Source of the DNA: an uncultured bacterium
GTDB lineage: Bacteria > SAR324 > XYD2-FULL-50-16
Direction of reading: 5' to 3'
Assembly: GCA_965602905.1 (NCBI GenBank)
Contig: CBFCZY010000016.1
Span: 2,280 to 66,279, forward strand
Length of the DNA: 64,000 nt
Part shown: piece after piece, positions 51,664 through 64,000 of the stretch
How the letters are laid out: every line of letters starts with the position of its first letter
How positions within the stretch are numbered: the stretch's first letter is position 1
The notes under the pieces: model-generated
The model's database searches: none
What the model was told of the DNA's origin: nothing
Seen by the model: the letters and a program-made list of their open reading frames with translations, nothing else
Program-made: the position numbers and the translations under genes

Positions 51664-53106
51664 ATGACCAATTCTTCTCCCCTTGAGTATGACTACTCTG
51701 TTGCCAAAGGTTTTATCATCTCCGCTCTTGTCTGGGGTGCAGTGGGTATGACTGTAGGTGTCTGGATCGCTTTAGAGTTAGCATTTCCAGTCCTTAACTT
51801 CGATACCCCCTACTTGAGTTTTAACCGACTGCGGCCGCTTCACACTAATGCTGTGATCTTTGGTTTTACCCTGTCTGGTATTTTTGCCAGTTGGTATTAT
51901 ATCTCACAACGAGTGTTGAAAGTTCGCATGGTTTACCCTGGCCTCGCAAAGTTCCATTTAGTATTATACAACTTAATCATTGTCCTTGCTGCAATTACGC
52001 TTTTAATGGGGGTAACCTCTTCTAAAGAGTATGCTGAGTTACAGTGGCCTCTTGATATTCTTGTAGTGGTCATGTGGCTTAGTTGGGGTGCCCATATCTT
52101 TGCCATGGCAGGGGCTAGGAAAGAAAAAACCCTTTATGTTTCTATTTGGTATTACATGGCCTCCTTTTTAGGGGTGGGCATGCTTTATATCTTTAACAAC
52201 TTCGCTATCCCTACAAGGCTTTACTCAGGGGTCGGCAGTGTTATGCATTCGGTTTCTGCTTATTCGGGGACAAACGACGCTAATGTGCAGTGGTGGTATG
52301 GCCACAATGCTGTGGCCTTTGTTTTTACCGTGCCTATCATCGCCATGGCTTACTACTTCCTCCCAAAGCAAGTAAACCAACCTATTTGGAGCTACAAGCT
52401 TTCTCTTTGGAGCTTCTGGGGTTTGATTTTTCTCTACCTTTGGGCTGGCCCACACCATATGTTATACTCAACTATTCCTGATTGGGTGCAAACCTTAGGT
52501 ATGCTCTTTTCCCTCGTGTTAATCATTCCCAGTTGGGGCTCTATGATTAACTTGATGCTCACAGTGAGTGGAAAGTGGGAACAACTGAAAACAGATCCAC
52601 TTTTAAAATTTATGGTGATTGGTTCTACTTTCTATGGTTTTTCAACCTTAGAAGGTTCTGTGCAAGCCATTAAGTCCGTGAATGCTCTGGCGCACTTCGG
52701 TGATTGGATTATTGGGCATGTTCACAATGGTGCACTGGGCTGGGTAGCCTTTATGATCATGGCTGCAATCATGCACATGGTGCCTCGAATTTGGAATACA
52801 GAACTCTATTCCTTGAAGATTGCAAACCAGCAATTTTGGCTGCAAACCATTGGCATTGTCTTTTACTTTTCCAGCATGTGGGTAGCAGGAATAACCCAAG
52901 GTATGATGTGGCGAGCTACAGACCAATGGGGCAACCTAGCCTATAGTTTCTTAGATACAGTTAAGGTCTTGTACCCCTACTGGAGTCTTCGGGCATTCGG
53001 CGGAACTCTGTTCTTAATAGGTTTCTTTATGTTTGCTTACAATATTATTAAAACCATCCAGTTAGCGCCTAAGGCCAGCTTGGATAGTCAACCTGCAACA
53101 GCTTAA
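51664..53106 (+). CDS. ccoN: cbb3-type cytochrome c oxidase subunit I
   Basis: 480 aa with 12+ TM segments and heme-copper His ligands in the typical contexts (RPLHTNAVIFGF, WWYGHNAVAF, GPHHM, HFGDWIIGHVHNGALGW). Confidence 0.9.
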   Translation: MTNSSPLEYDYSVAKGFIISALVWGAVGMTVGVWIALELAFPVLNFDTPYLSFNRLRPLHTNAVIFGFTLSGIFASWYYISQRVLKVRMVYPGLAKFHLVLYNLIIVLAAITLLMGVTSSKEYAELQWPLDILVVVMWLSWGAHIFAMAGARKEKTLYVSIWYYMASFLGVGMLYIFNNFAIPTRLYSGVGSVMHSVSAYSGTNDANVQWWYGHNAVAFVFTVPIIAMAYYFLPKQVNQPIWSYKLSLWSFWGLIFLYLWAGPHHMLYSTIPDWVQTLGMLFSLVLIIPSWGSMINLMLTVSGKWEQLKTDPLLKFMVIGSTFYGFSTLEGSVQAIKSVNALAHFGDWIIGHVHNGALGWVAFMIMAAIMHMVPRIWNTELYSLKIANQQFWLQTIGIVFYFSSMWVAGITQGMMWRATDQWGNLAYSFLDTVKVLYPYWSLRAFGGTLFLIGFFMFAYNIIKTIQLAPKASLDSQPATA

Positions 53107-53117
53107 TAGGTGAAAAA

Positions 53118-53795
53118 ATGTTAAATAAATTTTTCTCATACATCGAACAGCGACCTTTCCACTTTGGCTTGGCTATCTTTTTAGTCATTGTCGTTGGTGG
53201 GGTTGTGGAAATCTTTCCCAGCTTCGTGGAAAACTCCCGACCAAACCAAGGTGAAAAGCCCTATACTGCTTTGCAGTTAGCAGGTAGACAGATTTATATT
53301 CAAGAATCATGTAACGCCTGTCACTCCCAGTTAATCAGGCCTTTTAAGTCGGAAACCGATCGCTATGGCAAATTCTCCACCAGTGGAGAATATGCTTACG
53401 ACCGCCCCTTCCTTTGGGGTTCCAAACGTACTGGGCCAGATCTTTTACGTGTGGGCAACTATAGAACGACCGACTGGCACGAAAATCATTTTCGCAACGC
53501 TGCCTCTGTTTCCCCTGGAACCAATATGCCTAATTTCCCTTGGCTATTTGAATGGAAGGTGGATACCGACACAGTATATGCAGAAATGTACACCATCAAA
53601 GGGGTCTTTAATACTCCCTACGACCAGGAAGGAATGCCCCCACTTGGGAGTCTAGAAGATCTGAAAAAACATATCATGGCTGAAGCTGAGTTGATTGCCG
53701 AAGACATGAAAGGGCAAGACGTAAAGGATGCCATTGCAAAAGGGGATATCCCCCAAGTGGTAGCCTTAATTAGTTACTTAAACAGTTTAAAGTGA
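53118..53795 (+). CDS. ccoO: cbb3-type cytochrome c oxidase subunit II (mono-heme)
   Basis: 225 aa with an N-terminal TM anchor, the CNACHSQ heme site and GPDLLRVGNYRTTDWHENHFRNAASVSPGTNMP. Confidence 0.9.
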   Translation: MLNKFFSYIEQRPFHFGLAIFLVIVVGGVVEIFPSFVENSRPNQGEKPYTALQLAGRQIYIQESCNACHSQLIRPFKSETDRYGKFSTSGEYAYDRPFLWGSKRTGPDLLRVGNYRTTDWHENHFRNAASVSPGTNMPNFPWLFEWKVDTDTVYAEMYTIKGVFNTPYDQEGMPPLGSLEDLKKHIMAEAELIAEDMKGQDVKDAIAKGDIPQVVALISYLNSLK

Positions 53796-53802
53796 GGTTG
53801 TG

Positions 53803-53982
53803 ATGGAAATGGATTGGAGACAGTGGCTTTATGCCGCATTTGTATTTTCCATGCTGGTGAGCATGTTGGGCTTTGCCGCCTACCTGTGGCTTGATAAAGG
53901 CCGAGCCAGCAGAATTGAGCAAGATGGGATGATCCCCTTGCAGGATGAACCCGTTCACCCTCTTCTTAAAACTTCGGAGTAA
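53803..53982 (+). CDS. ccoQ: Small single-TM protein at the CcoQ position of the cbb3 operon
   Basis: 59 aa with one TM (LYAAFVFSMLVSMLGFAAYLW), located between ccoO and ccoP. The assignment is positional. ATG 53803 is preferred to the track's GTG 53800 on RBS spacing. Confidence 0.55.
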   Translation: MEMDWRQWLYAAFVFSMLVSMLGFAAYLWLDKGRASRIEQDGMIPLQDEPVHPLLKTSE

Positions 53983-53985
53983 CCC

Positions 53986-54888
53986 ATGTTTGCTGCAAAT
54001 TTTTCTATTGATAGTGAATCCCAGATCACCTTGATTGCGGCTATCGCAATTGCTGGGGCTGTAGCTTGGCTCTTTTTGTTTATTATGAAAAGAATCAAGA
54101 ACCATAAAGAATTAGAAGGTGAAATTTTAGACCATAAATGGGATGGGATTGGTGAACGTAACAACCCTGCCCCTAAGGTGATGCATGTGATCATGCTTTC
54201 CACCTTTTTGTTTACTGTTTGGTACGCTACCATGGGTTTTCCCTTGGGTTCCTTTTCGCAGATCACCCAGTATAATACTGAGGTGAAAGAATACAAAGAA
54301 ACCTTTGATCAAAATTGGTCAGAGGCCAGTGAAGATGAACTCAGTGCTTTAGGCGAGAGTATTTTTAATTCCAAGTGTGTCGCTTGCCACGGTTATACTG
54401 GTGAAGGCCAAGACGGCAAGGCCGCCAACCTAATTGAGTTTGGATCAGTTAAGCATGTAGTCTATGTGTTAAAAAATGGTTCCCAAGGAATGGGTAAGCT
54501 CACTCCTTCTATGCCTGCCTTCTATATGATGTTAGGTGCTACTCCTGAGGAGAAAGAACAGAACGCCGCTGATGTGGCAGCCTATGTTGTCTCTCTTTCA
54601 AACCGTACACCAAGCGCTGGAAACCCAGAAGCTGGCAAGACAGTCTTTGATACAAACTGTTCGGCCTGCCATGGTTTTGATGGTAAAGGAAACGGCATCG
54701 GTGGTTCTATCCCCAATATGGCTGCAAACCTTACAGAGTACGGTACAGCACCCTATGTTGAAGCCATAATCAGAAATGGTAAAAAAGGTTTGATTGGCGA
54801 AATGCCTGGCTTTGAAGCTGAGGGAACTCTTTCTAACTTACAATACCAAGCCTTGTCCCTTTATGTGGCCAAGGGATTGGTAGAATAA
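53986..54888 (+). CDS. ccoP: cbb3-type cytochrome c oxidase subunit III (di-heme)
   Basis: 300 aa with an N-terminal TM, the FixP_N motif DHKWDGIGERNNPAP and two heme sites, CVACHG and CSACHG. Confidence 0.85.
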   Translation: MFAANFSIDSESQITLIAAIAIAGAVAWLFLFIMKRIKNHKELEGEILDHKWDGIGERNNPAPKVMHVIMLSTFLFTVWYATMGFPLGSFSQITQYNTEVKEYKETFDQNWSEASEDELSALGESIFNSKCVACHGYTGEGQDGKAANLIEFGSVKHVVYVLKNGSQGMGKLTPSMPAFYMMLGATPEEKEQNAADVAAYVVSLSNRTPSAGNPEAGKTVFDTNCSACHGFDGKGNGIGGSIPNMAANLTEYGTAPYVEAIIRNGKKGLIGEMPGFEAEGTLSNLQYQALSLYVAKGLVE

Positions 54889-54901
54889 TCAAGGATACAT
54901 T

Positions 54902-55030
54902 ATGTTTAAATTGCAAGGTCTTGGTGGGTTTGTGCTCCTCGTTGTTGTTTTGGTTTCGCTCTGGGCTGGTCTTGTTACCACCGCTGTGAACAACCAAGCA
55001 GACAACGCCACCAACTATATTGAGAAGTAG
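54902..55030 (+). CDS. Unlisted 42-aa single-TM ORF downstream of ccoP (DUF4006-like)
   Basis: Below the ORF-track size cutoff. Translation: MFKLQGLGGFVLLVVVLVSLWAGLVTTAVNNQADNATNYIEK. It starts 13 nt after the ccoP stop and ends 8 nt before ccoG. It resembles the small protein found after ccoP in Campylobacterota (recollection, not verified). Confidence 0.4.
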   Translation: MFKLQGLGGFVLLVVVLVSLWAGLVTTAVNNQADNATNYIEK

Positions 55031-55038
55031 GCTTTAAA

Positions 55039-56397
55039 ATGGCTGGGCTAAAGGGCAGCTATGTAGCAAAGCGCTACTGGGTTTTCGCTTTAATCACCTT
55101 GGTGATTGGGGCCATTCCCTTTGTGAAGCTTGGGGAATACCACCTGTTGCTCTTAAGCTTTAATCATGGTCGCTTTGAGCTTTTAGGTGCCAATTTTGAT
55201 GCCCAAGAGCTTTACTTCATTCCCCTTTTAATGATTTTAGGCTTTATCTTCCTCTTTTTTCTAACCAGCTTGGGTGGGAGAATCTGGTGTGGGTGGTTCT
55301 GCCCCCAAACCATTTTCCGCAGCCTTTTCCGTGATGGAATTCAGGGCCTTTTGTTGGGCTTGAGTCGTTGGAAGTGGAAAGACCGACCGCCTAAGTCTGA
55401 ATCCTTTAGCCAAAAGATTAGATTAGGCCTTTCCTACCTTATTTTACTGGTTTTAGCGGCGGTAGCCTCTGCCAATATGCTTTGGTATTTTGTCACTCCT
55501 GCTGAATTTTTTGCAGCTTTTACTGCCCCCCTAGACCATCAAATTTTACTTGGGCTTTGGGCCGGTAGCAGTCTTTTTCTCTGGCTGGATATCGGCTTTT
55601 GGGGGGAATCCTTTTGCGCTGTCGCTTGCCCCTACGCTAGGATTCAATCGGTTTTATTTGATGAAGATACCTTACTGGTTCTCTACGATGAAAAGAGAGG
55701 GAATAATAGTGATGGCTCCATGGGCAACAGAAACCTTGCCAAAGAGAAGGATGACTCTGGTGATTGTATTGGTTGCGACCTTTGTGTAAAGGTTTGCCCA
55801 GCAGGCATTGATATCCGTGAAGGTTTGCAGCTACCCTGTATTGAGTGTTTAGAGTGTGTTGATGCCTGTGCTCCTATTATGGCCAAAAAGGGCAAGGAAA
55901 ACTTAATCCACTGGGCAAGTAACAAATCCTTAAAGGGTGAAAAACTTCATCTTTTCAGGCCTAGAACCATTTTCTATTTTGTGGTTATGGCGGCCTTTGT
56001 GGCCGTTCTGTTAGGCTTAAGCGGTAAGCAGGTGGAGGTTTTAGCAAACTTAAATAGAGCGACAGGGCTTTATGCTATTAAGCCAGAACGGGTTGAAAAT
56101 CACTATATCCTGCTCTTAACCAATAAGACTTCAGAGACGAAAAGAGTAACCATTTTGGTAAAAAGTGAAGGCAATATCACATTAATCCGCCCAAAAAAGG
56201 CGGTGTTTTTAAAGCCTAAAGGCCGAGTGAAAAAGGTCTTGGTACTGGCTACAAAAGACAACCTAAACCCCAATGGGGAAAAGGATAAATCCTTGCCTAT
56301 TCGGCTCCTATTGCAAAGCGAAGCGGGAGTAGAATTGAATCAAATGATGAGTATATTTATTTATCCCTCGACACAGGAACTAAAGGAAAAACGATGA
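55039..56397 (+). CDS. ccoG: cbb3 oxidase accessory protein CcoG/FixG (membrane 4Fe-4S ferredoxin)
   Basis: 452 aa. Shows the GRIWCGWFCPQT motif, TM segments and two ferredoxin motifs, CIGCDLCVKVCP and CIECLECVDAC. Confidence 0.85.
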   Translation: MAGLKGSYVAKRYWVFALITLVIGAIPFVKLGEYHLLLLSFNHGRFELLGANFDAQELYFIPLLMILGFIFLFFLTSLGGRIWCGWFCPQTIFRSLFRDGIQGLLLGLSRWKWKDRPPKSESFSQKIRLGLSYLILLVLAAVASANMLWYFVTPAEFFAAFTAPLDHQILLGLWAGSSLFLWLDIGFWGESFCAVACPYARIQSVLFDEDTLLVLYDEKRGNNSDGSMGNRNLAKEKDDSGDCIGCDLCVKVCPAGIDIREGLQLPCIECLECVDACAPIMAKKGKENLIHWASNKSLKGEKLHLFRPRTIFYFVVMAAFVAVLLGLSGKQVEVLANLNRATGLYAIKPERVENHYILLLTNKTSETKRVTILVKSEGNITLIRPKKAVFLKPKGRVKKVLVLATKDNLNPNGEKDKSLPIRLLLQSEAGVELNQMMSIFIYPSTQELKEKR

Positions 56398-56903
56398 AAC
56401 AATGGAATTATTGGCCCTATATCACAGCGAGCTTTCTCGCCGTCGCCTTTATGATGACAGGCATGACGATATTTATTGCCGTAACAAAAGTACCTGTTGA
56501 ATTAGATGGCCGTTTTCAAATGAGCTACCAAGATTTTAATGAGAGCTATCTTGATTTTCAAAATCAGAGAGATGCCTTTGATCAGGCAGGCTATAAGATC
56601 AAAATGGAACTGCCAAAGTCGCTTGCAGCAGGCCAGTTTAATTTGTTGGTTACAGGCCCATCCAAGGTAGAAACTGCCAGCTTAGTTATCAGTCGGCCAG
56701 CTACAAACTTAGACCAACTTGGACCATTTAAATTACTTGGAGACGGGTCTAGTTTTGCCCATGAAATAACCTTACCCTTGACTGGCTGTTGGGTATTTGA
56801 TGTTAAAATGAAAGTAAATGACTGGATGATTTTTGAGCGTTCTTCCTTATTTTTCAACGATGCTGGTGAGCTTATAAAAAACCGTACCTGTGGTAGAAAA
56901 TGA
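56394..56903 (+). CDS. FixH/CcoH-like protein
   Basis: 169 aa with an N-terminal TM (WPYITASFLAVAFMMTGMTIFIAV). It sits between ccoG and ccoI with ATGA overlaps at both ends. Confidence 0.6.
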   Translation: MKQWNYWPYITASFLAVAFMMTGMTIFIAVTKVPVELDGRFQMSYQDFNESYLDFQNQRDAFDQAGYKIKMELPKSLAAGQFNLLVTGPSKVETASLVISRPATNLDQLGPFKLLGDGSSFAHEITLPLTGCWVFDVKMKVNDWMIFERSSLFFNDAGELIKNRTCGRK

Positions 56904-59293
56904 ACCAAGCCTTAACTAGCAAATTAGTTTGTGACCATTGCCTATTGCCCATGATCCAAGAGGAGGCCATCATCCATGATGCTGCTGCCTTCTGTTGTCA
57001 CGGTTGCAAAGGCGCTTGGGACATGATCCATGCTGCTGGTTTGGCTTCTTACTATGAAAAACGAGAGCCCACCCCAGGCCTTGCTGTCAGCTTGCCTGAT
57101 TTACTTCCAGAAAGTGCAAATTTTACTGCTACTGAATTCCAAGAGACACAATCTACCCAGCTACTAATTACAGGCATCCACTGCGCTGCTTGCGTCTGGT
57201 TGAATGAAGCCTATTTGCTTAAATTGGATGGGGTGATTTCTGCAAAGGTGAACTATAGTAACCATCGAGCAACCATTGAGTGGGAGCCCGCAAAGACAGA
57301 CCTTGCAACCATCATTCATGCCCTTGCTAGTTTAGGGTATAGGGCTATGTATTACGATCCTCAGCAAAGCGAAAAGATGTTAGCCTCTCAAAGGTTGCTG
57401 GATTACCGCCGTTTTATCTTAGGCCTTTTTGCCATGATGAATATTATGTGGCTGGCTATTGCCGAATGGGCAGGATATTTTAGTGGCATGGAGCAAAATG
57501 TGAAAGATCTGCTTCACCTGGCCCAATTTACCTTGGCTACCCCTGTTGTTTTTTACTCGGGTAAGCCCTTTTTTACAGGCGCCATTGCAGGGCTTAAAAA
57601 CGGAATTTTAGGGCTGGATTTTCAAATCGCCTTTTCCACCTTTTTAATCTGGGGCTATAGTAGCTATGCTTCTGTAACCCAAACGGGCAGACCCTATTTT
57701 GAGTCGGCAGTGATGCTGATCACTTTTGTACTTGGCGGGAAATTCATAGAGCGTATTTCCCTAAAAAACATCTATGAATTTTCCAGCCATCTTGGGAACC
57801 ATCTCAAGGGCTTTGCCACTAGAATTGAAAAAAATCAAAGATCGCAGATTGCAGCCGTTTCCATTGAAATTGGCTGGGTTTTGGAAGCTAAGGCAGGGGA
57901 GCGGATTTTAGCCGATGGCATCATTGCCCAAGGTGCAAGCGACTTTGATGAAAGCTTTTTAACAGGGGAGTCAAAAGCCCAGTTTAAAAATCAAGGAGGC
58001 GAAGTTTTGGCTTCCAGCCTAAATTTGAGTGGATTAGTGCAATATAGGGTAACGAAAAAACCAGATGAATCTGTGGCCGCAAAGATCGCAGACCTTGTTG
58101 ACCTAGCCACCAACTCCAAACCACCGATGCAGCAAAGAGCAGACAAAATTGCTCGTGTTTTTGTACCCCTAGTTTTAGTACTAGCCACCTTAAATGGCTG
58201 GATTTGGGGGTGGCATGAAGGCAACTTTGAGGCTGGATTGATCCAGTTTATTGCCCTGTTAGTCATTGCCTGCCCCTGTGCTTTAAGCTTAGCTACGCCC
58301 ATTGCCTATTTGATTGGCATCAAGGAAGCCGCAAAAAAGGGCATTTTGTTTCGCAAAGCTTCCGTTATTGAAGACTTGAGCCAAGCTGAAGAATTATATT
58401 TAGATAAAACAGGCACCTTAACCGAGGGCAAGCCCAAGGTGATCCAAACATGGGGCGAAAGCCATGGTCCCTTACTCTTTGAAATGGTTTCAGGTTCACA
58501 TCATCCCTTATCCAGAGCCATTGTAGATTTTTTACCTAAATCCACAGAGTTGCAGGGCTTAGGCCTAGAGGAAATAGCAGGCAGAGGGCTAAGGGCCGAA
58601 CACAAAGGCCAAAATTACTTCCTTGGAAGTTTGGATTGGTTGAAAGAAGTTTGTGAGCTACCAGATGAGGCCCGTGTGTTCGCAAACCAACAGTTGGAAC
58701 TAGGTCGCAGTTTAGTCGCTTACGGCAAATCAGAAGTAAAGGTTATCTTTAGCTTGGAAGACCAAATCAAACCTGATCTTAATCTGACTTTGCAAAAACT
58801 AAAGGAACAGGGACTTAATTTATCCCTCTTGAGTGGTGATGCTAAGGCCCCCAGTGAAGCAGTAGCGGGCAAGGTTGGGATTAAAAATGTAATTGCTCCC
58901 TCCAGTCCTGAGGCAAAATTAGAGGTGATCTGTGAGGCTCAAAAGCGGGGCCCCGTGATCATGGTCGGTGATGGCATTAATGATAGCCCTGCCTTGGTCC
59001 AAGCCGACGTAGGGATCTCTATAGGCTGCGGCACCCAGACAGCCATTGCAGCCAGTGACTTGGTGCTTTTAGGTGACGATTTAAAAGGTCTTTTCCAAGC
59101 AAGGGTTATAGCTTCTAAAGTAGGTAGGCTAGTAAAACAAAACTTAGGGATTTCTTTAGGCTATAATATCCTCGCCCTTTCCTTGGCCTTTTTAGGCCTA
59201 GTTAACCCTCCCTTAGCCGCTGCAGCCATGTCACTTTCCAGCCTTTTGGTGGTGGGGAATGCATGGTTTTTCGGTGGAACTCAATTCAGGTAA
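56900..59293 (+). CDS. ccoI: Copper-translocating P1B-type ATPase CcoI/FixI
   Basis: 797 aa. Shows an N-terminal Cys-rich domain (CDHCLLP..CCHGCKG), HMA (GIHCAACV), the CPC motif (IACPCALSLATP), DKTGTLT and GDGINDSPAL. Confidence 0.85.
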   Translation: MNQALTSKLVCDHCLLPMIQEEAIIHDAAAFCCHGCKGAWDMIHAAGLASYYEKREPTPGLAVSLPDLLPESANFTATEFQETQSTQLLITGIHCAACVWLNEAYLLKLDGVISAKVNYSNHRATIEWEPAKTDLATIIHALASLGYRAMYYDPQQSEKMLASQRLLDYRRFILGLFAMMNIMWLAIAEWAGYFSGMEQNVKDLLHLAQFTLATPVVFYSGKPFFTGAIAGLKNGILGLDFQIAFSTFLIWGYSSYASVTQTGRPYFESAVMLITFVLGGKFIERISLKNIYEFSSHLGNHLKGFATRIEKNQRSQIAAVSIEIGWVLEAKAGERILADGIIAQGASDFDESFLTGESKAQFKNQGGEVLASSLNLSGLVQYRVTKKPDESVAAKIADLVDLATNSKPPMQQRADKIARVFVPLVLVLATLNGWIWGWHEGNFEAGLIQFIALLVIACPCALSLATPIAYLIGIKEAAKKGILFRKASVIEDLSQAEELYLDKTGTLTEGKPKVIQTWGESHGPLLFEMVSGSHHPLSRAIVDFLPKSTELQGLGLEEIAGRGLRAEHKGQNYFLGSLDWLKEVCELPDEARVFANQQLELGRSLVAYGKSEVKVIFSLEDQIKPDLNLTLQKLKEQGLNLSLLSGDAKAPSEAVAGKVGIKNVIAPSSPEAKLEVICEAQKRGPVIMVGDGINDSPALVQADVGISIGCGTQTAIAASDLVLLGDDLKGLFQARVIASKVGRLVKQNLGISLGYNILALSLAFLGLVNPPLAAAAMSLSSLLVVGNAWFFGGTQFR

Positions 59294-59296
59294 ACT

Positions 59297-59485
59297 ATGG
59301 ATATGCTACCGATCATGATTTTTGTGTCCATCTTCTTAGGTGGTTTGGGGTTGGCAGGTGTCCTTTGGGGATTGAAAAATGAACAGTTTGATGACCCTGA
59401 AGGCAGCCGTTACCGCATACTGTTTGATGATGAAGAGGAAGACCGCTACCAAGAAAACCTAAAATCTAAAAAAAGAGAGATCTGA
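59297..59485 (+). CDS. ccoS: cbb3 oxidase maturation protein CcoS/FixS
   Basis: 62 aa with one TM, then KNEQFDDPEGSRYRILFDDEE, typical of CcoS. Confidence 0.8.
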   Translation: MDMLPIMIFVSIFLGGLGLAGVLWGLKNEQFDDPEGSRYRILFDDEEEDRYQENLKSKKREI

Positions 59486-60222
59486 TGGAAGGCCTGATCA
59501 TATCCCTGCCATTTTTTGCAGGTTTACTCGGTGGTTTGCATTGTTTAGGTATGTGTGGGCCAATTGTTTGTGCTTTTGGGGCAAGCTGTGGGCCTGATCG
59601 AAAGAAGGAATTTCACCTAGGCTACCAATCTGGTCGGTTGAGTTCCTACCTTGTCTTAGGGGCAGGGTTTGGCTATTTAGGAAGCCTTTTAGAAGAATCT
59701 CTACTGCTGGTTCGGTTGCAATCGGGCGCAGCTCTTTTTGGAGGGGCAGTGATGATTCTTTTTGCTTTAAGCCAAATCACAGGATTAGGGGTTGGTTTTG
59801 GCGGTTTTCAAGGGGCTATAGGCCAAAAACTAGGAAGCTTAGCTGCAAAAATCCAAAGATTAGGTAAGGGAAGTTGGTTTGTATTGGGTTCCATGACAGG
59901 CCTTCTGCCATGCGGCTTACTCTTTAGTTTGGAAGCCTTAGCCATGTCTACTGGCGACTGGTTTGGCGGTGTGGTGATCATGGGCCTTTTTTGGCTAGGC
60001 AGCCTCCCCTATCTATTGCTAGCAGGGGAATTAGCCAACAGGTTTAGTGCGAAATTACGTGGAAAAGGGCAGCAAATTTTGGCTGTGTTAATGCTCTTAA
60101 GTGGAATAGCTATTATTTACCACCGCTGGAGTATGCTTGAGTGGAGAGCAGCCTGCATCGAAAACGACCTTCTAGACCCCACAAGCAGTCTCCATTGGTT
60201 TCCCTTTGAGCTGTTTAATTGA
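59485..60222 (+). CDS. DsbD_2 / TauE-SafE-like membrane protein associated with cco maturation clusters
   Basis: 245 aa and polytopic. GGLHCLGMCGPIV is the family signature. There is a 1-nt start/stop overlap (TGATG) with ccoS. Confidence 0.65.
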   Translation: MEGLIISLPFFAGLLGGLHCLGMCGPIVCAFGASCGPDRKKEFHLGYQSGRLSSYLVLGAGFGYLGSLLEESLLLVRLQSGAALFGGAVMILFALSQITGLGVGFGGFQGAIGQKLGSLAAKIQRLGKGSWFVLGSMTGLLPCGLLFSLEALAMSTGDWFGGVVIMGLFWLGSLPYLLLAGELANRFSAKLRGKGQQILAVLMLLSGIAIIYHRWSMLEWRAACIENDLLDPTSSLHWFPFELFN

Positions 60223-60255: not shown

Positions 60256-62442
60256 TTAAATTACCAACTCAAGCCGAATGGGCGTGTATTTGTAACTTGG
60301 TTGCCTCGAGCTGGTATCAAATACTGGCTCTAAGAGTTGATTGACAGGGGCAAAATGCATGGGGATAAAGACCTCACCATATTTAACTTGGTTGGTTATC
60401 AAGGCCTTTGCTTTTACCACGGCTCTTTGACTGGTTACCATGACTCGATTCCCCTCTTGGATTCGCAACTCCCTCGCCTGCTCGGGGTTAATCTCTAGAT
60501 AAATTTCCTTAGGGGAAATCTTTTTTAGAATTGGCGAACGGTCTGTTCTGGTTCCTGTGTGCCACTGGGCGGAGCTACCCCTGCCAGTTAAAAGCACCAA
60601 GGGGAATTCTTTGTTTGTTACCTGTGGTGGAGCTGCCACCGCACCAAATAAAAACTTGGCTTTTTGGTCAGGGTGGAAGAACTTCCCATCGGCAAAAAGT
60701 CGGGTTTTACTGGGTCTTCTTAGGGGCCTTGGCCATTGCACCCCCCCTTGTTCTTCAATTTCTGTGTAGCCCCTAATGCCTGAAAAATTACAGGGTTGCC
60801 CCTTACTGATTTCTTGTAATGTGGCAAAAGCAACGGCTGGAGTAGCAAAGGCAGACTCTACCCAATCCAACCCAAATTTATTGGCTAGTTTTAAAAAAAT
60901 ATCAAAGTCTGTTTTTGCTTCACCTTTGATCGCTGAAACAGGGTTAACTTTGGAAAGCCTTCTTTCTGAATTGATCATAACCCCTTCCTTTTCTCCCCAG
61001 CCAGCAGCAGGTAAAAATAGATCTGCCTCTAAGGCTGTGGCTGTGTCACAAAAGATATCTTGTACCACCAGAAAGTCTAACTTTTCTCTCATTTTTTTGA
61101 GTTTTTCAGGCTCAATCCAAGAGTGAAATGGATTGGTAGCAATAACCCATAAAAATTTGATTTTTCCCTCTTCAATTTGCTCTAAAATCTGGTCATAGGC
61201 TAGCGAAGGCTGATCAGGAATTTTAGATTCATCCAGCTTTAAAATGGAGGCGATTTTTTTTCTGTCTCTTGGGCTAGCAAAGTCGTGGCCTCCAAGCAGA
61301 TTTGTAGTGTTGCTAAAAAGTCTGGAACCCATAGCGTTACATTGGCCTGTGATGGAGTTGGCACCTGTGCCAACTCTGCCAATGTTACCTGTCATCAAGG
61401 CTAGATTGATAATCGCTTGTGCCGTTAAAACAGCTTGGTGACCTTGGTTAACCCCCATGGTCCACCAGAAAGAAACTCGTTTTCCCTGGGCTATCGTGCT
61501 TGCTAGCTCTTGGATCTGGCTAAAGGTTAACCCTGTTTCTTCGGTAAGATTTAACAAATTAACGTTACTTAAAAAGTTCTTAAATGACTGAAATTCAACG
61601 GTATGGGTATCAATAAAACTCGGATCAATTGCATTTTTATCAATGAGTATTTTTGCCAATCCATAGAGTAGGCTCAAATCTGATTTGGCCTTTAAGGGGT
61701 AATGGCTTGTTGCCCCTTGGGCCGTTTTGGTATTTCTTGGGTCGATTACCAAAATTTTAGGGTCATGGGGATTTTGGACCACATGCTTCCACAATATGGG
61801 GTGGTTGATACAGGGGTTTGCCCCAATAAAAACCAAGACGTCAGACTCTTTTAAGTCTTCATAGCTAAAGGGGGGTGCATCAAAACCAAAGGACTGTTTG
61901 TAAGCGACAGCGCTGGTTGCCATGCACTGTCTTGTATTGCCGTCGCCTTCTTTTATCCCCAAACCGAACTTGGCAAGGCTACCGAGCAGAGCCATTTCTT
62001 CTGTGGTGATCTGGCCTGTAGATAAAAAGGCCGCCTCAGCGTTCCCCTTGGAATCTGTAACCGAGGTGAGTTTTTCTTTAAATAGGTTCAAGGCGGCATC
62101 CCAGCTAGATTGAGTAAACTCACCTGTTTCCCCTTTGATCAATGGGGTGGTTGCTCTGTCCTCTGCCAAAACAGGCGCCAAGGCTTGCCAACCCTTGGGG
62201 CATGCTTTTCCTAAGTTTACAGGGTGGCTTTTTTCTGGGCTGAGATTGATCGCCACGCCCTCTTTTTTATGTACCTGCAAGTTGCAACCTGTGGAGCAAT
62301 AGCCACAAACTAGGGATTGGGTTTTGTCCGGTTGGTGTGGCACTAGGCCCAAACCTTCTGGCCCAGTGGCTTTTTTGATGCTGTCCGTTAGTGGACCTTC
62401 TGTTTGTGTGACTAAGCTCTGTATTTTAGTTAAGAAGTTCAT
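60256..62442 (-). CDS. Molybdopterin (Mo-bisPGD) oxidoreductase catalytic subunit, Nap/Nas/Fdh clade, no Tat signal
   Basis: 728 aa. The N-terminal 4Fe-4S motif is CGYCSTGCNLQV..GKACPKG. The Mo-ligand region NTRQCMATSAVAYKQSFG resembles ARHCMASAVVGFMRTFG of NapA, and TGQCNAMGSR resembles TGQPNAMG of NarB/NasA. No twin-arginine leader is present. Confidence 0.8.
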   Translation of the reverse strand: MNFLTKIQSLVTQTEGPLTDSIKKATGPEGLGLVPHQPDKTQSLVCGYCSTGCNLQVHKKEGVAINLSPEKSHPVNLGKACPKGWQALAPVLAEDRATTPLIKGETGEFTQSSWDAALNLFKEKLTSVTDSKGNAEAAFLSTGQITTEEMALLGSLAKFGLGIKEGDGNTRQCMATSAVAYKQSFGFDAPPFSYEDLKESDVLVFIGANPCINHPILWKHVVQNPHDPKILVIDPRNTKTAQGATSHYPLKAKSDLSLLYGLAKILIDKNAIDPSFIDTHTVEFQSFKNFLSNVNLLNLTEETGLTFSQIQELASTIAQGKRVSFWWTMGVNQGHQAVLTAQAIINLALMTGNIGRVGTGANSITGQCNAMGSRLFSNTTNLLGGHDFASPRDRKKIASILKLDESKIPDQPSLAYDQILEQIEEGKIKFLWVIATNPFHSWIEPEKLKKMREKLDFLVVQDIFCDTATALEADLFLPAAGWGEKEGVMINSERRLSKVNPVSAIKGEAKTDFDIFLKLANKFGLDWVESAFATPAVAFATLQEISKGQPCNFSGIRGYTEIEEQGGVQWPRPLRRPSKTRLFADGKFFHPDQKAKFLFGAVAAPPQVTNKEFPLVLLTGRGSSAQWHTGTRTDRSPILKKISPKEIYLEINPEQARELRIQEGNRVMVTSQRAVVKAKALITNQVKYGEVFIPMHFAPVNQLLEPVFDTSSRQPSYKYTPIRLELVI

Positions 62443-62444
62443 AA

Positions 62445-63881
62445 TTACCCTGCCTCGCCTTGGGGCATCTGTGGGCCCAGTCCAACTTTAAAAAATAAAT
62501 GCCGCTCAATTAAGCTTCCGCAAAGAAGTCCGTAAAAAATAAAGGTTCCCAAGGTTTTTACATCGCCGACCTGTAAAACCCAAAGGGGGATAAATAGACC
62601 AAAAACCAAGATAGAATATTGCTGCAATAGCCATTCACCCCTTAACTTTGTGGTTAAAAGTTTATGGCTTTTGCCCAATAGACCTGTTGTCTTTTGGAAT
62701 TGAGTTAACTCATAGCCTACCCAAAGGAGGCTCACGGCCATAATTATCAGTAAAAGCTGGTGCGCCTCGCTTGCACGGGCAAAAGATAAAGCAAAGGAGG
62801 CCGATAAAATCAAACCTGTTAAGGGAAAACCAATCAAAGCCCTCGCCCCTTTCCAGTAGGGTCTGGGGGCTGTTTCATAAAGTTTGGCAGAGGAATAAAC
62901 CCCAAGGGCCCCAAAGATGGAGGCTAGAATCTTTAAAGGCAAGCTCAAGGCAAGACTAAAGGGAGGAGATAGCCCCAAGCCTGAAACTTGCCCAATAGCA
63001 AGAACTAACAAAAGTAGAGGTAGATAAACCCCAAGTAGTATTGCTTCACGGCTTAACCACGAAGTCTTAAGGCCTAAAAAAGCACGGTAGCTTTTAAGGG
63101 GGTGACCAAGGTGGAAGATGCTGGAGCCTAAACCAACCAGTAAAGTAACAGCCGCTAGGGCCTCAAGAAATTTAGCCTCCTCTAGAAAGAAGGAAAGGCC
63201 CAATAGGCCTAAAGAAAACTGGCTAAAAACTAAAAGCAAAACCAAAGGCAAATGGCCCTTGTCTGGTTTTCTTGTGGTCTCTAGACTTTTGTCATTTTGA
63301 GTAATATCCCCATTCACATAGTCTGTAGTGGGAAAGGTGAATTTTCGGTCTACCTCTATATTTAAGCTACTATGCATCCCCCCTGTAATTTCGTCCCTTG
63401 GTTTTACCACGATTTTAATGGCATCATTGGGGCAGCCCTGTTGGCAGGCCGTTTCTTCGCCAACTTCCAAGCGGTCGCTGCACATGTCGCATTTGCGCAC
63501 TATTTTAAGTTCTGGAATCCATTTTGGTGCATCATAGGGGCAACGTAATATACAATATTGGCAGCCAATACATTGGTCGTCTAAGTGTTTAACAATTCCT
63601 GTATTTTCGTCTTTAATGTAGGCACCAGTGGGGCAACCTGACATGCAAGCTGGGTCTAAACAATGGTGGCAAGAGGTGGTGATGGTTTGGCTGATTGAGC
63701 CAGTGGTAGATTCCACAACGCCTACGGTTCTCCAAGATTCTTCAGGTTGTAAACCATTCAAATTTTGGCAGGCTGTTACGCAGCCCTTACAACCAGTGCA
63801 GGCCTTTAAGTCGATTTCAAAGGCGTACTGCTCCCCATGGTTTGGGGTTTTTAAGGTAGAATTCATTGTTTTACTGGTCAA
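62445..63881 (-). CDS. Fusion of a 4x[4Fe-4S] DmsB/NrfC-type ferredoxin domain with a DmsC/NrfD-like polytopic membrane domain
   Basis: 478 aa. There are four cluster motifs: CTGCKGCVTAC, CHHCLDPACMSGCP, CIGCQYCILRCP and CDMCSDRL..CQQGCP. About 8 hydrophobic helices follow from aa ~205. The stop lies 2 nt before the molybdoenzyme ATG. Confidence 0.75.
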   Translation of the reverse strand: MTSKTMNSTLKTPNHGEQYAFEIDLKACTGCKGCVTACQNLNGLQPEESWRTVGVVESTTGSISQTITTSCHHCLDPACMSGCPTGAYIKDENTGIVKHLDDQCIGCQYCILRCPYDAPKWIPELKIVRKCDMCSDRLEVGEETACQQGCPNDAIKIVVKPRDEITGGMHSSLNIEVDRKFTFPTTDYVNGDITQNDKSLETTRKPDKGHLPLVLLLVFSQFSLGLLGLSFFLEEAKFLEALAAVTLLVGLGSSIFHLGHPLKSYRAFLGLKTSWLSREAILLGVYLPLLLLVLAIGQVSGLGLSPPFSLALSLPLKILASIFGALGVYSSAKLYETAPRPYWKGARALIGFPLTGLILSASFALSFARASEAHQLLLIIMAVSLLWVGYELTQFQKTTGLLGKSHKLLTTKLRGEWLLQQYSILVFGLFIPLWVLQVGDVKTLGTFIFYGLLCGSLIERHLFFKVGLGPQMPQGEAG

Positions 63882-64000
63882 GTAAACTAGGCTTTATGGT
63901 TTATCCAAAAACTACTTTAAAGCTACCTACTTTCTTAACCTTCTTTCAAAGTGTGGTCTTCTGATAGGTGATTTTTTCTCCTGTGCATTACTCCAATTAA

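Follow-up and report, generated by a model that had tools for sequence, protein, structure and literature searches.

Bacterial nitrate assimilation is described in textbooks as the work of soluble enzymes, which are fed by NADH, ferredoxin or flavodoxin. Wells et al. (2020, PMC7331816) state that canonical four-cluster and membrane-anchor subunits accompany no member of the Fdh/Nas/Aio/Nap clade of molybdoenzymes, and partner subunits of this kind are unmentioned in the 2023 survey of Wells et al. They are found in DmsABC and other periplasmic complex iron-sulfur molybdoenzymes (CISM), where a four-cluster B subunit is combined with an eight-helix, haem-free C subunit. The quinol site of E. 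coli DmsC lies on the periplasmic side, and SoeC, the membrane subunit of SoeABC, has been proposed to be inverted relative to DmsC (PMC8076601). Here we describe a gene pair near the end of a 64,000-nucleotide stretch (the window; assembly GCA_965602905.1, contig CBFCZY010000016.1, positions 2,280 to 66,279) from an uncultured SAR324 bacterium. A catalytic subunit that resembles the assimilatory nitrate reductases (Nas) is encoded directly behind a protein that fuses a DmsB-like ferredoxin domain to a DmsC-like membrane domain. The pair very probably serves nitrate assimilation, and its full mechanism is read here, with a probability of roughly 0.6, as that of a cytoplasm-facing, membrane-bound, quinol-driven assimilatory nitrate reductase. 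Searches of the full-text literature, covered as open-access papers, found no account of a DmsBC-type partner of a Nas enzyme; one may exist elsewhere.

The catalytic gene (60256..62442, minus strand), defined by its open reading frame and Pfam matches, starts with ATG and encodes a Nas-like enzyme of 728 amino acids of the molybdenum bis(pyranopterin guanine dinucleotide) (Mo-bisPGD) type. Upstream of it lies the gene for the fused electron-input subunit (62445..63881, minus strand), which is 478 amino acids long when read from a TTG codon. Public gene calls for an identical fused protein (P0001) place the start at the ATG at 63866, and the subunit is probably 473 rather than 478 amino acids long. 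The genes are separated by 2 nt, the TAA of the fused gene ending at 62445 and the ATG of the catalytic gene standing at 62442. The same two genes recur across hundreds of genomes, so that their pairing is not due to chance. An in-frame stop occurs closely upstream of both open reading frames, each of which is already the longest possible.

In the fused protein, Pfam recognised Fer4_11 (residues 68-157) and DmsC (PF04976, residues 211-464). The DmsB/PsrB-like ferredoxin domain (63411..63830, minus strand), predicted to be cytoplasmic, was assigned from its cysteines, its fold and its match to the NCBIfam model DMSO_dmsB (121 bits). It contains four [4Fe-4S] motifs (Cys28-38, 71-84, 104-115 and 131-151), and all 16 cluster cysteines were invariant in 85 homologues. 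The DmsC-like membrane domain (62487..63254, minus strand) is predicted from Pfam, hhalign, AlphaFold2 and the distribution of lysine plus arginine (K+R) to have eight helices and its N-terminus inside the cell. By hhalign it matched residues 6-281 of the 287 residues of E. coli DmsC with a probability of 97.8%; an NCBIfam scan of the isolated membrane domain gave no match. The AlphaFold2 model of the fused protein, built from 85 sequences, showed eight transmembrane helices, with a mean predicted local distance difference test score (pLDDT) of 82.6, a predicted template modelling score (pTM) of 0.86, and pLDDT values mostly above 90 in the membrane domain. It was used instead of an earlier model from 21 sequences (pLDDT 66.9), which was unreliable in the Fe-S domain. 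The Fe-S half of the model matched the folds of FdnH, PsrB and ArrB, and the membrane half those of PsrC and ActC. Both domains were fused in one open reading frame in all 120 best database homologues; in databases the fused protein is labelled 'formate dehydrogenase iron-sulfur subunit' or 'DMSO reductase anchor subunit'. In a plasmid search no record spanned at least 80% of the fused protein, and the only matches were PhsB-like Fe-S proteins. Most fused homologues (P0006-P0120) carry a conserved N-terminal extension of ~50 amino acids (LLxEQxxLTAVxRFSxxHE...YRDLIPL), which is missing from the small SAR324-like subclade to which the fused protein of the window belongs.

The quinol site of DmsC and SoeC was assigned by Calisto and Pereira (PMC8076601) to five positions (S62, H65, S82, S85 and E87), and replacement of His65 in DmsC abolishes quinol oxidation (mutagenesis cited in PMC8076601). 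In the hhalign register, these residues of E. coli DmsC correspond to S254, H257, S274, S277 and E279 of the fused protein; across 85 sequences, H257, S274, S277 and E279 were invariant and conservation of S254 was at least 90%. The segment in question (63045..63122, minus strand) is predicted from the same register to lie where helices 2-3 end on the cytoplasmic side.

A signal peptide was absent from both proteins of the window, the fused and the catalytic. The catalytic N-terminus (MNFLTKIQSLV...) has neither a twin-arginine (RR) motif nor a hydrophobic region, and an N-terminus resembling a twin-arginine translocation (Tat) signal was found in none of 120 catalytic homologues. A Tat signal gained by start-codon revision was ruled out, because the in-frame stops upstream of both open reading frames prevent any such addition, and the family-wide scan of catalytic subunits was negative. 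Since the Fe-S domain of the fused protein is N-terminal, with no signal or helix before it, it is expected to stay in the cytoplasm. The loops on the Fe-S side of the membrane domain (2-3, 4-5, 6-7 and the C-terminus) carried 12-15 K+R residues and the opposite side 0-3, in 21 of 21 sequences, whereas the K+R bias of E. coli DmsC is reversed relative to that of the fused protein (8 vs 4). Given this opposite charge bias, the fused membrane domain would correspond to an inverted DmsC, like the proposed SoeC, and its quinol site is predicted to face the cytoplasm beside the protein's own Fe-S domain.

Pfam identified Molybdop_Fe4S4, Molybdopterin and Molydop_binding in the 728-residue catalytic subunit. 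Its N-terminal [4Fe-4S] motif (C46-x2-C49-x3-C53...C81; 62191..62307, minus strand) aligns with the motif of Nas, Nap and Fdh. By alignment, RQCMATSAVAY (from R171; 61900..61932, minus strand) holds the predicted molybdenum ligand Cys173 followed by Met, as in the Nas/Nap type, and TGQCNAMG(SR) (from T365; 61327..61350, minus strand) is the active-site segment. The elements C46/C49/C53/C81, RQC173M and TGQCNAMG align with Nas of five taxa. At the ligand position, the Cys-Met of the catalytic subunit corresponds to RLCMSS in Nas, RHCMAS in Nap and R[LV]C/U-H in formate dehydrogenases (Fdh), which in the PDB alignment have Sec/Cys-His where the catalytic subunit has Cys-Met. The active-site segment reads TGQCNAMGSR here, TGQPNAMGGRE in Nas, TGQPSACG in Nap and RGQNNVQG in Fdh. 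The catalytic subunit shares R-x-C-M and TGQxNAMG with Nas and Nap, and not with Fdh.

Scored against NCBIfam, the catalytic subunit gave 462 bits with Fdh-alpha, 424 with haloarchaeal NasA, 423 with NasC, 298 with NapA, 132 with PhsA and 127 with DmsA/YnfE. A rhizobial NasA from a nirB-nirD-nasA operon had a near-identical profile (470, 378, 429 and 369), likewise highest on the Fdh-alpha model and likewise below the cut-offs. As this genuine NasA shares the sub-threshold profile, the low scores are no argument against Nas function. Among annotated plasmid genes, the best matches were assimilatory nitrate reductases (31-35% identity, E 1e-99 to 1e-113), followed by FdhF (26-31%, E 1e-70 to 1e-86) and, third, NapA (27%, E ~1e-63); the best PDB matches were formate dehydrogenases. 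Assignment as a formate dehydrogenase was rejected on the Nas/Nap-type ligand and active-site motifs, despite the top Fdh scores. Assignment as SoeA, Psr/Phs or DmsA was rejected on the model scores and the tree, in a comparison made without a SoeA sequence or model.

Neighbour joining on 682 alignment columns with 200 bootstraps, without NarB or NasC sequences, grouped the enzymes that are paired with a fused subunit in one clade with 100% bootstrap support, comprising members from SAR324, Verrucomicrobiota, Planctomycetota, Myxococcota, Acidobacteriota and Omnitrophota. The catalytic subunit of the window is 52-74% identical to the 119 listed homologues from other phyla. We regard it, on the motifs and the tree, as belonging to a distinct Nas-like lineage. 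In the phylogenetic placement, which had been suggested in an earlier note made from the letters of the window alone, the clade itself had 100% support and the deeper nodes 25-52%. The sister of the paired clade, with 100% support, is an unpaired enzyme of Cetobacterium. This nearest relative (44% identity) is encoded on a plasmid of Cetobacterium somerae (L091, 6983-9995), an anaerobic Fusobacterium, without a fused partner and next to a 307-residue hypothetical gene and mobB/moeA. The downstream 307-residue gene was considered as a counterpart of the fused subunit and found to be unrelated (hhalign probability 0.07%). Elsewhere in the tree, the alignment shows no N-terminal [4Fe-4S] cysteines in a Rhodococcus 'nitrate reductase' (L096, 1399-3906), and a second Sorangium MopB protein (L045, 11815-14322) from the same well-supported clade keeps them.

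The strongest indication of the substrate comes from the gene neighbourhood. On two other contigs of the same organism, which carry an identical fused protein, nirB (833 amino acids) and a Rieske-type nirD are divergent from the fused gene and lie ~440 bp upstream of it (L001, 3-2231; L002, 168-3016), that is, beyond position 64000 of the window. The window itself stops 119 nt into this ~440-nt intergenic region between nirB and the fused gene (63882-64000). The nirD-nirB/fused-catalytic layout is kept in relatives whose fused and catalytic proteins are 48-62% and 59-74% identical, respectively. Gene context was counted in the best 80 species loci, which come from SAR324, Verrucomicrobiota, Planctomycetota and Myxococcota; 70 of these had enough downstream sequence and 54 had at least 6 kb on either side. 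A Nas-like gene stood directly after the fused gene in 67 of the 70 loci. Among the 54 well-flanked loci, 50 had a nitrite reductase gene nearby (NirA in 29, NirB in 23), 25 a CysJ-like diflavin reductase gene and 24 a transporter-like gene of the major facilitator superfamily (MFS) or NrtA-like type. Nap genes were found neither in the window nor in the 80 related loci. The adjacency of nirBD, together with the nirA/nirBD and transporter-like genes across phyla, allows the substrate to be inferred as nitrate, and in this the earlier note, which held that the substrate could not be deduced, is superseded.

The same note had called the arrangement unusual. As a statement of rarity this does not hold: a scan of one genome per species turned up relatives of the fused protein in at least 583 species, most of which belong to Verrucomicrobiota, Planctomycetota and Myxococcota, and the fusion of DmsB and DmsC, whose prevalence the note had left to be surveyed, is thus widespread. 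Cultured carriers include Sorangium cellulosum So0157-2, Singulisphaera acidiphila DSM 18658, Paludisphaera soli, Cerasicoccus arenae KCTC 12870, Rubritalea profundi and members of Luteolibacter. Among 1.84 billion cluster representatives, 490 clusters (50% identity) matched the fused protein at E <=1e-30; the best 150 of these 490 are 438-619 amino acids long and mostly aligned over nearly the whole query. As a statement that the arrangement is undescribed, the word apparently stands, within the open-access literature. What the note had read from the window itself is borne out: the three Nas/Nap motifs, the 2-nt spacing, the fusion (by Pfam, the 16 cysteines and the modelled helices), the lack of a Tat or other signal peptide on either protein, the cytoplasmic side of the complex (by the missing signals and the K+R counts), the resemblance in topology to SoeABC and the difference between the catalytic subunit and SoeA, as far as the PhsA and DmsA/YnfE models report on the latter.

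Several other features of these loci were observed. The intergenic region on contig L001 (2232-2656) contains, by eye, a sigma-54-like element (GGCAC-N5-TTGA, ~2492-2505) and several TGTCAG/CTGACA repeats, which may be nitrogen-control sites. The CysJ-like reductase, with flavodoxin, FAD and NAD domains (for example L005, 13831-15567), accompanies the NirA-type nitrite reductase; this suggests that the NirA of these clusters is NADPH-dependent and built like the sulfite reductase CysJI. Behind the nitrate-transporter-like MFS gene there is often a gene that fuses a protein phosphatase 2C (PP2C) domain to a Ser/Thr kinase domain (L005, 4880-8101; L007, 3341-6570; 12 loci in all), whose product may regulate nitrate uptake. 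An Rfam scan of the 64-kb window gave no match.

Compared with the described Nas enzymes (NasA, NasC and NarB), the catalytic subunit is likewise a MopB protein of ~700 residues, predicted to be cytoplasmic, with the N-terminal [4Fe-4S] motif, R-x-C-M and TGQxNAMG, and in its family, as in theirs, the gene is found next to nirBD or nirA and nitrate-transporter genes. Unlike them, it forms a clade of its own, with 31-35% identity to proteobacterial, actinobacterial and Bacteroidota Nas; it has no C-terminal [2Fe-2S] extension as in proteobacterial NasA (728 residues here vs 873-913); and where they rely on an NADH reductase, ferredoxin or flavodoxin, it is paired with a membrane protein in which four-cluster and DmsC parts are fused. 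With SoeABC the pair shares Mo-bisPGD and four-cluster components that carry no Tat signal and are placed on the cytoplasmic side, as well as an eight-helix membrane component with His65, Glu87, Ser82 and Ser85 (DmsC numbering) in an orientation predicted to be inverted relative to DmsC. SoeA belongs to the Psr/Phs-type lineage. The catalytic subunit differs in lineage, to judge from scores of ~130 bits with the related PhsA and DmsA/YnfE models against 423-462 with Nas and Fdh. In addition, B and C are one polypeptide, the gene context is one of nitrogen and not sulfur, and electron flow is presumed to be reversed, from quinol to substrate.

The resemblance to DmsABC lies in the electron-input subunit, as its B-like domain scores best on DMSO_dmsB and its C-like domain aligns with nearly all of DmsC, with the quinol-site residues kept. 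Unlike the pair described here, DmsAB is exported by Tat to the periplasm, the charge bias of DmsC is opposite, and B and C are separate proteins. DmsA is only 21% identical to the catalytic subunit, Cys173 of which aligns within the YSSAQ stretch of DmsA; the molybdenum ligand of DmsA is a Ser. NarGHI is similar in outline (quinol oxidation in the membrane, a relay of Fe-S clusters and nitrate reduction in the cytoplasm) and also supports assimilation in mycobacteria. NarG has an Asp ligand, however, and NarI is a dihaem cytochrome b, whereas the membrane domain here is DmsC-like. The narH model gave only 51 bits. Of the 27 NCBIfam families that the catalytic subunit matched, the 25 best were listed, and these include no NarG equivalog model. 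The redox loop of Nar is electrogenic, unlike the enzyme predicted here. NapA (with NapGH or NapC) has the same Cys-Met ligand motif and, like the enzyme proposed here, would draw its electrons from quinol; unlike the catalytic subunit it is Tat-exported and works with NapB and NapC, and the two are 29-30% identical. FdhF-type formate dehydrogenases differ in having Sec/Cys-His and RGQNNVQG instead of Cys-Met and TGQCNAMG.

From the architecture, the predicted topology, the conservation of cofactor and quinol-site residues and the linkage to nitrate-assimilation genes described above, we infer that nitrate is the substrate, that quinol is the donor and that electrons flow from the latter to the former. 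In the proposed mechanism, the DmsC-like domain would oxidise quinol, probably menaquinol, on the cytoplasmic face of the membrane. The electrons would run down the four [4Fe-4S] clusters of the ferredoxin domain to which it is fused, and would then reach the [4Fe-4S] cluster of the catalytic subunit and finally the Cys-ligated Mo-bisPGD. There, nitrate would be turned into nitrite in the cytoplasm, and the neighbouring NirBD would take the nitrite to ammonium. Because the protons released from quinol and those used in nitrate reduction would appear and disappear on the same side, the step should be electroneutral. The best reading is thus a non-electrogenic quinol:nitrate oxidoreductase for assimilation. 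Quinol couples lie far below the nitrate/nitrite couple, so that the reaction would be strongly favourable. The potential of the nitrate/nitrite couple is about +430 mV (Wells et al. 2023 survey). The quinol route would be cheaper than an NADH-dependent Nas, since the electrons can first traverse energy-conserving dehydrogenases.

Several points weigh against this reading. No biochemical, genetic or expression data were found on any member of the family, and conservation of the quinol-site residues alone is no proof of quinol turnover. The catalytic subunit scores below every NCBIfam equivalog cut-off (for Nas, 424 vs 1000 and 423 vs 1100), and the position of its clade relative to Nas, Nap and Fdh was recovered with only 25-52% bootstrap. 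The nirBD genes could supply NADH-derived electrons, as do NasB/NasG in Paracoccus. The known sequence of this organism shows no nitrate transporter, and a nearby nitrite reductase gene is missing from 4 of the 54 well-flanked loci. In 3 of the 70 loci a nirA-fused pair occurs without an adjoining catalytic gene; these are two Luteolibacter loci (L083 and L086) and one from a Verrucomicrobiales metagenome-assembled genome (L049). In L083, which was inspected, genes for subtilisin-like proteases follow. The catalytic gene of these loci may sit elsewhere in the genome, or the fused subunit may have another or additional partner. Finally, 11 of 120 fused homologues, all from Myxococcota, have an RR-containing N-terminal stretch (KRRLP[VL]LPVAALL) before the ~50-residue extension. 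Its likeness to a twin-arginine signal is only superficial, and the positive-inside bias holds in these sequences as well.

An unlikely alternative is that the enzyme is an assimilatory nitrate reductase with a membrane-tethered ferredoxin, in which the DmsC-like domain is a mere anchor. NAD(P)H or ferredoxin would then be the electron source, and the electrons would enter the four-cluster domain by way of, for example, NirB/NirD or a CysJ-like reductase. All known Nas enzymes draw on soluble donors (Wells et al. 2020, PMC7331816; 2023 survey), and nirBD, or nirA together with the CysJ-like diflavin reductase gene, adjoins the pair in most loci. A mere anchor, however, would need neither eight conserved helices nor the five quinol-site positions of DmsC/SoeC, which are conserved across phyla. 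The pair also occurs in the four loci without a nearby nitrite reductase gene, and the CysJ-like genes track NirA (25 loci vs 29 with NirA) and not the pair.

It is less likely still that the pair is dissimilatory or serves redox balancing, as a cytoplasmic quinol:nitrate oxidoreductase that conserves no energy and acts as a Nap-like electron sink or in respiration. The architecture is that of the respiratory CISM enzymes, and NirBD also takes part in dissimilatory or detoxifying nitrite reduction in enterobacteria. In the window, moreover, the pair adjoins a complete cbb3 oxidase cluster (51664-60222, plus strand), with ccoN, ccoO, ccoP, ccoG, a fixH-like gene, ccoI for a P-type ATPase, ccoS (62 amino acids, called on contig L001) and a gene for a DsbD_2 membrane protein. 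This cluster is convergent with the Nas-like gene, but the adjacency is not conserved in relatives, and the cbb3 neighbourhood says little about the function of the gene pair. The NirA-type (assimilatory, sirohaem), transporter-like and LysR genes around the pair are instead typical of assimilation clusters, and a context of this type is seen in aerobic Verrucomicrobiota, Planctomycetota and Myxococcota. The predicted topology, in addition, yields no charge separation.

That the enzyme uses another substrate or works in the other direction, as a quinone-reducing dehydrogenase (of formate, sulfite or arsenite) or as a chlorate, selenate or iodate reductase, is very unlikely. MopB substrates are hard to infer from sequence, the architecture resembles that of SoeABC, and the top NCBIfam and PDB scores are those of formate dehydrogenases. 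Nevertheless, rhizobial NasA also scores highest on the Fdh-alpha model, and the ligand and active-site motifs are Cys-Met and TGQxNAMG instead of Sec/Cys-His and RGQNNVQG. The PhsA and DmsA/YnfE scores are low (no SoeA model was among the NCBIfam families listed), and the conserved context consists of nitrite reductase and nitrate transport genes, without formate or sulfur genes.

The nitrite reductases NirBD and NirA are cytoplasmic, which counts against a periplasmic location of the enzyme. Although most of the CISM enzymes that have DmsBC-type partners work in the periplasm (PMC8076601) and the RR-containing stretch occurs in some fused homologues, an export that was overlooked, through Tat hitch-hiking or a mis-called start, can be dismissed as highly improbable in view of the stops that bound both open reading frames, the lack of Tat-like N-termini among the catalytic homologues and the K+R distribution, which includes the RR-bearing sequences of Myxococcota.

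In a speculative and rather improbable extension of the quinol-driven reading, the fused subunit would be more than a passive inlet. In one version, a DmsC/NrfD-type proton pathway would send the quinol protons outside, and an electrogenic Nas would exploit the ~0.3-0.5 V drop between quinol and nitrate. In the other, the quinol-driven fused subunit would act as a general membrane ferredoxin that also feeds the NirA-type nitrite reductase, as is hinted at by the nirA-fused pairs without an adjoining catalytic gene. If true, either version would tie the nitrogen assimilation of Planctomycetota, Verrucomicrobiota, Myxococcota and SAR324 directly to their respiratory chains.

Overall, the analysis suggests a third mode of electron supply for nitrate assimilation, in which quinol delivers electrons via a cytoplasm-facing, fused DmsBC-type subunit, and the pair with this subunit seems to be the usual arrangement in several phyla that are abundant in soil and in the sea. 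If the reading of the pair as a quinol-driven assimilatory nitrate reductase is true, the partner gene could be better annotated, a second inverted complex iron-sulfur molybdoenzyme would stand beside SoeABC, and the energy cost of nitrate assimilation in the carriers would change.

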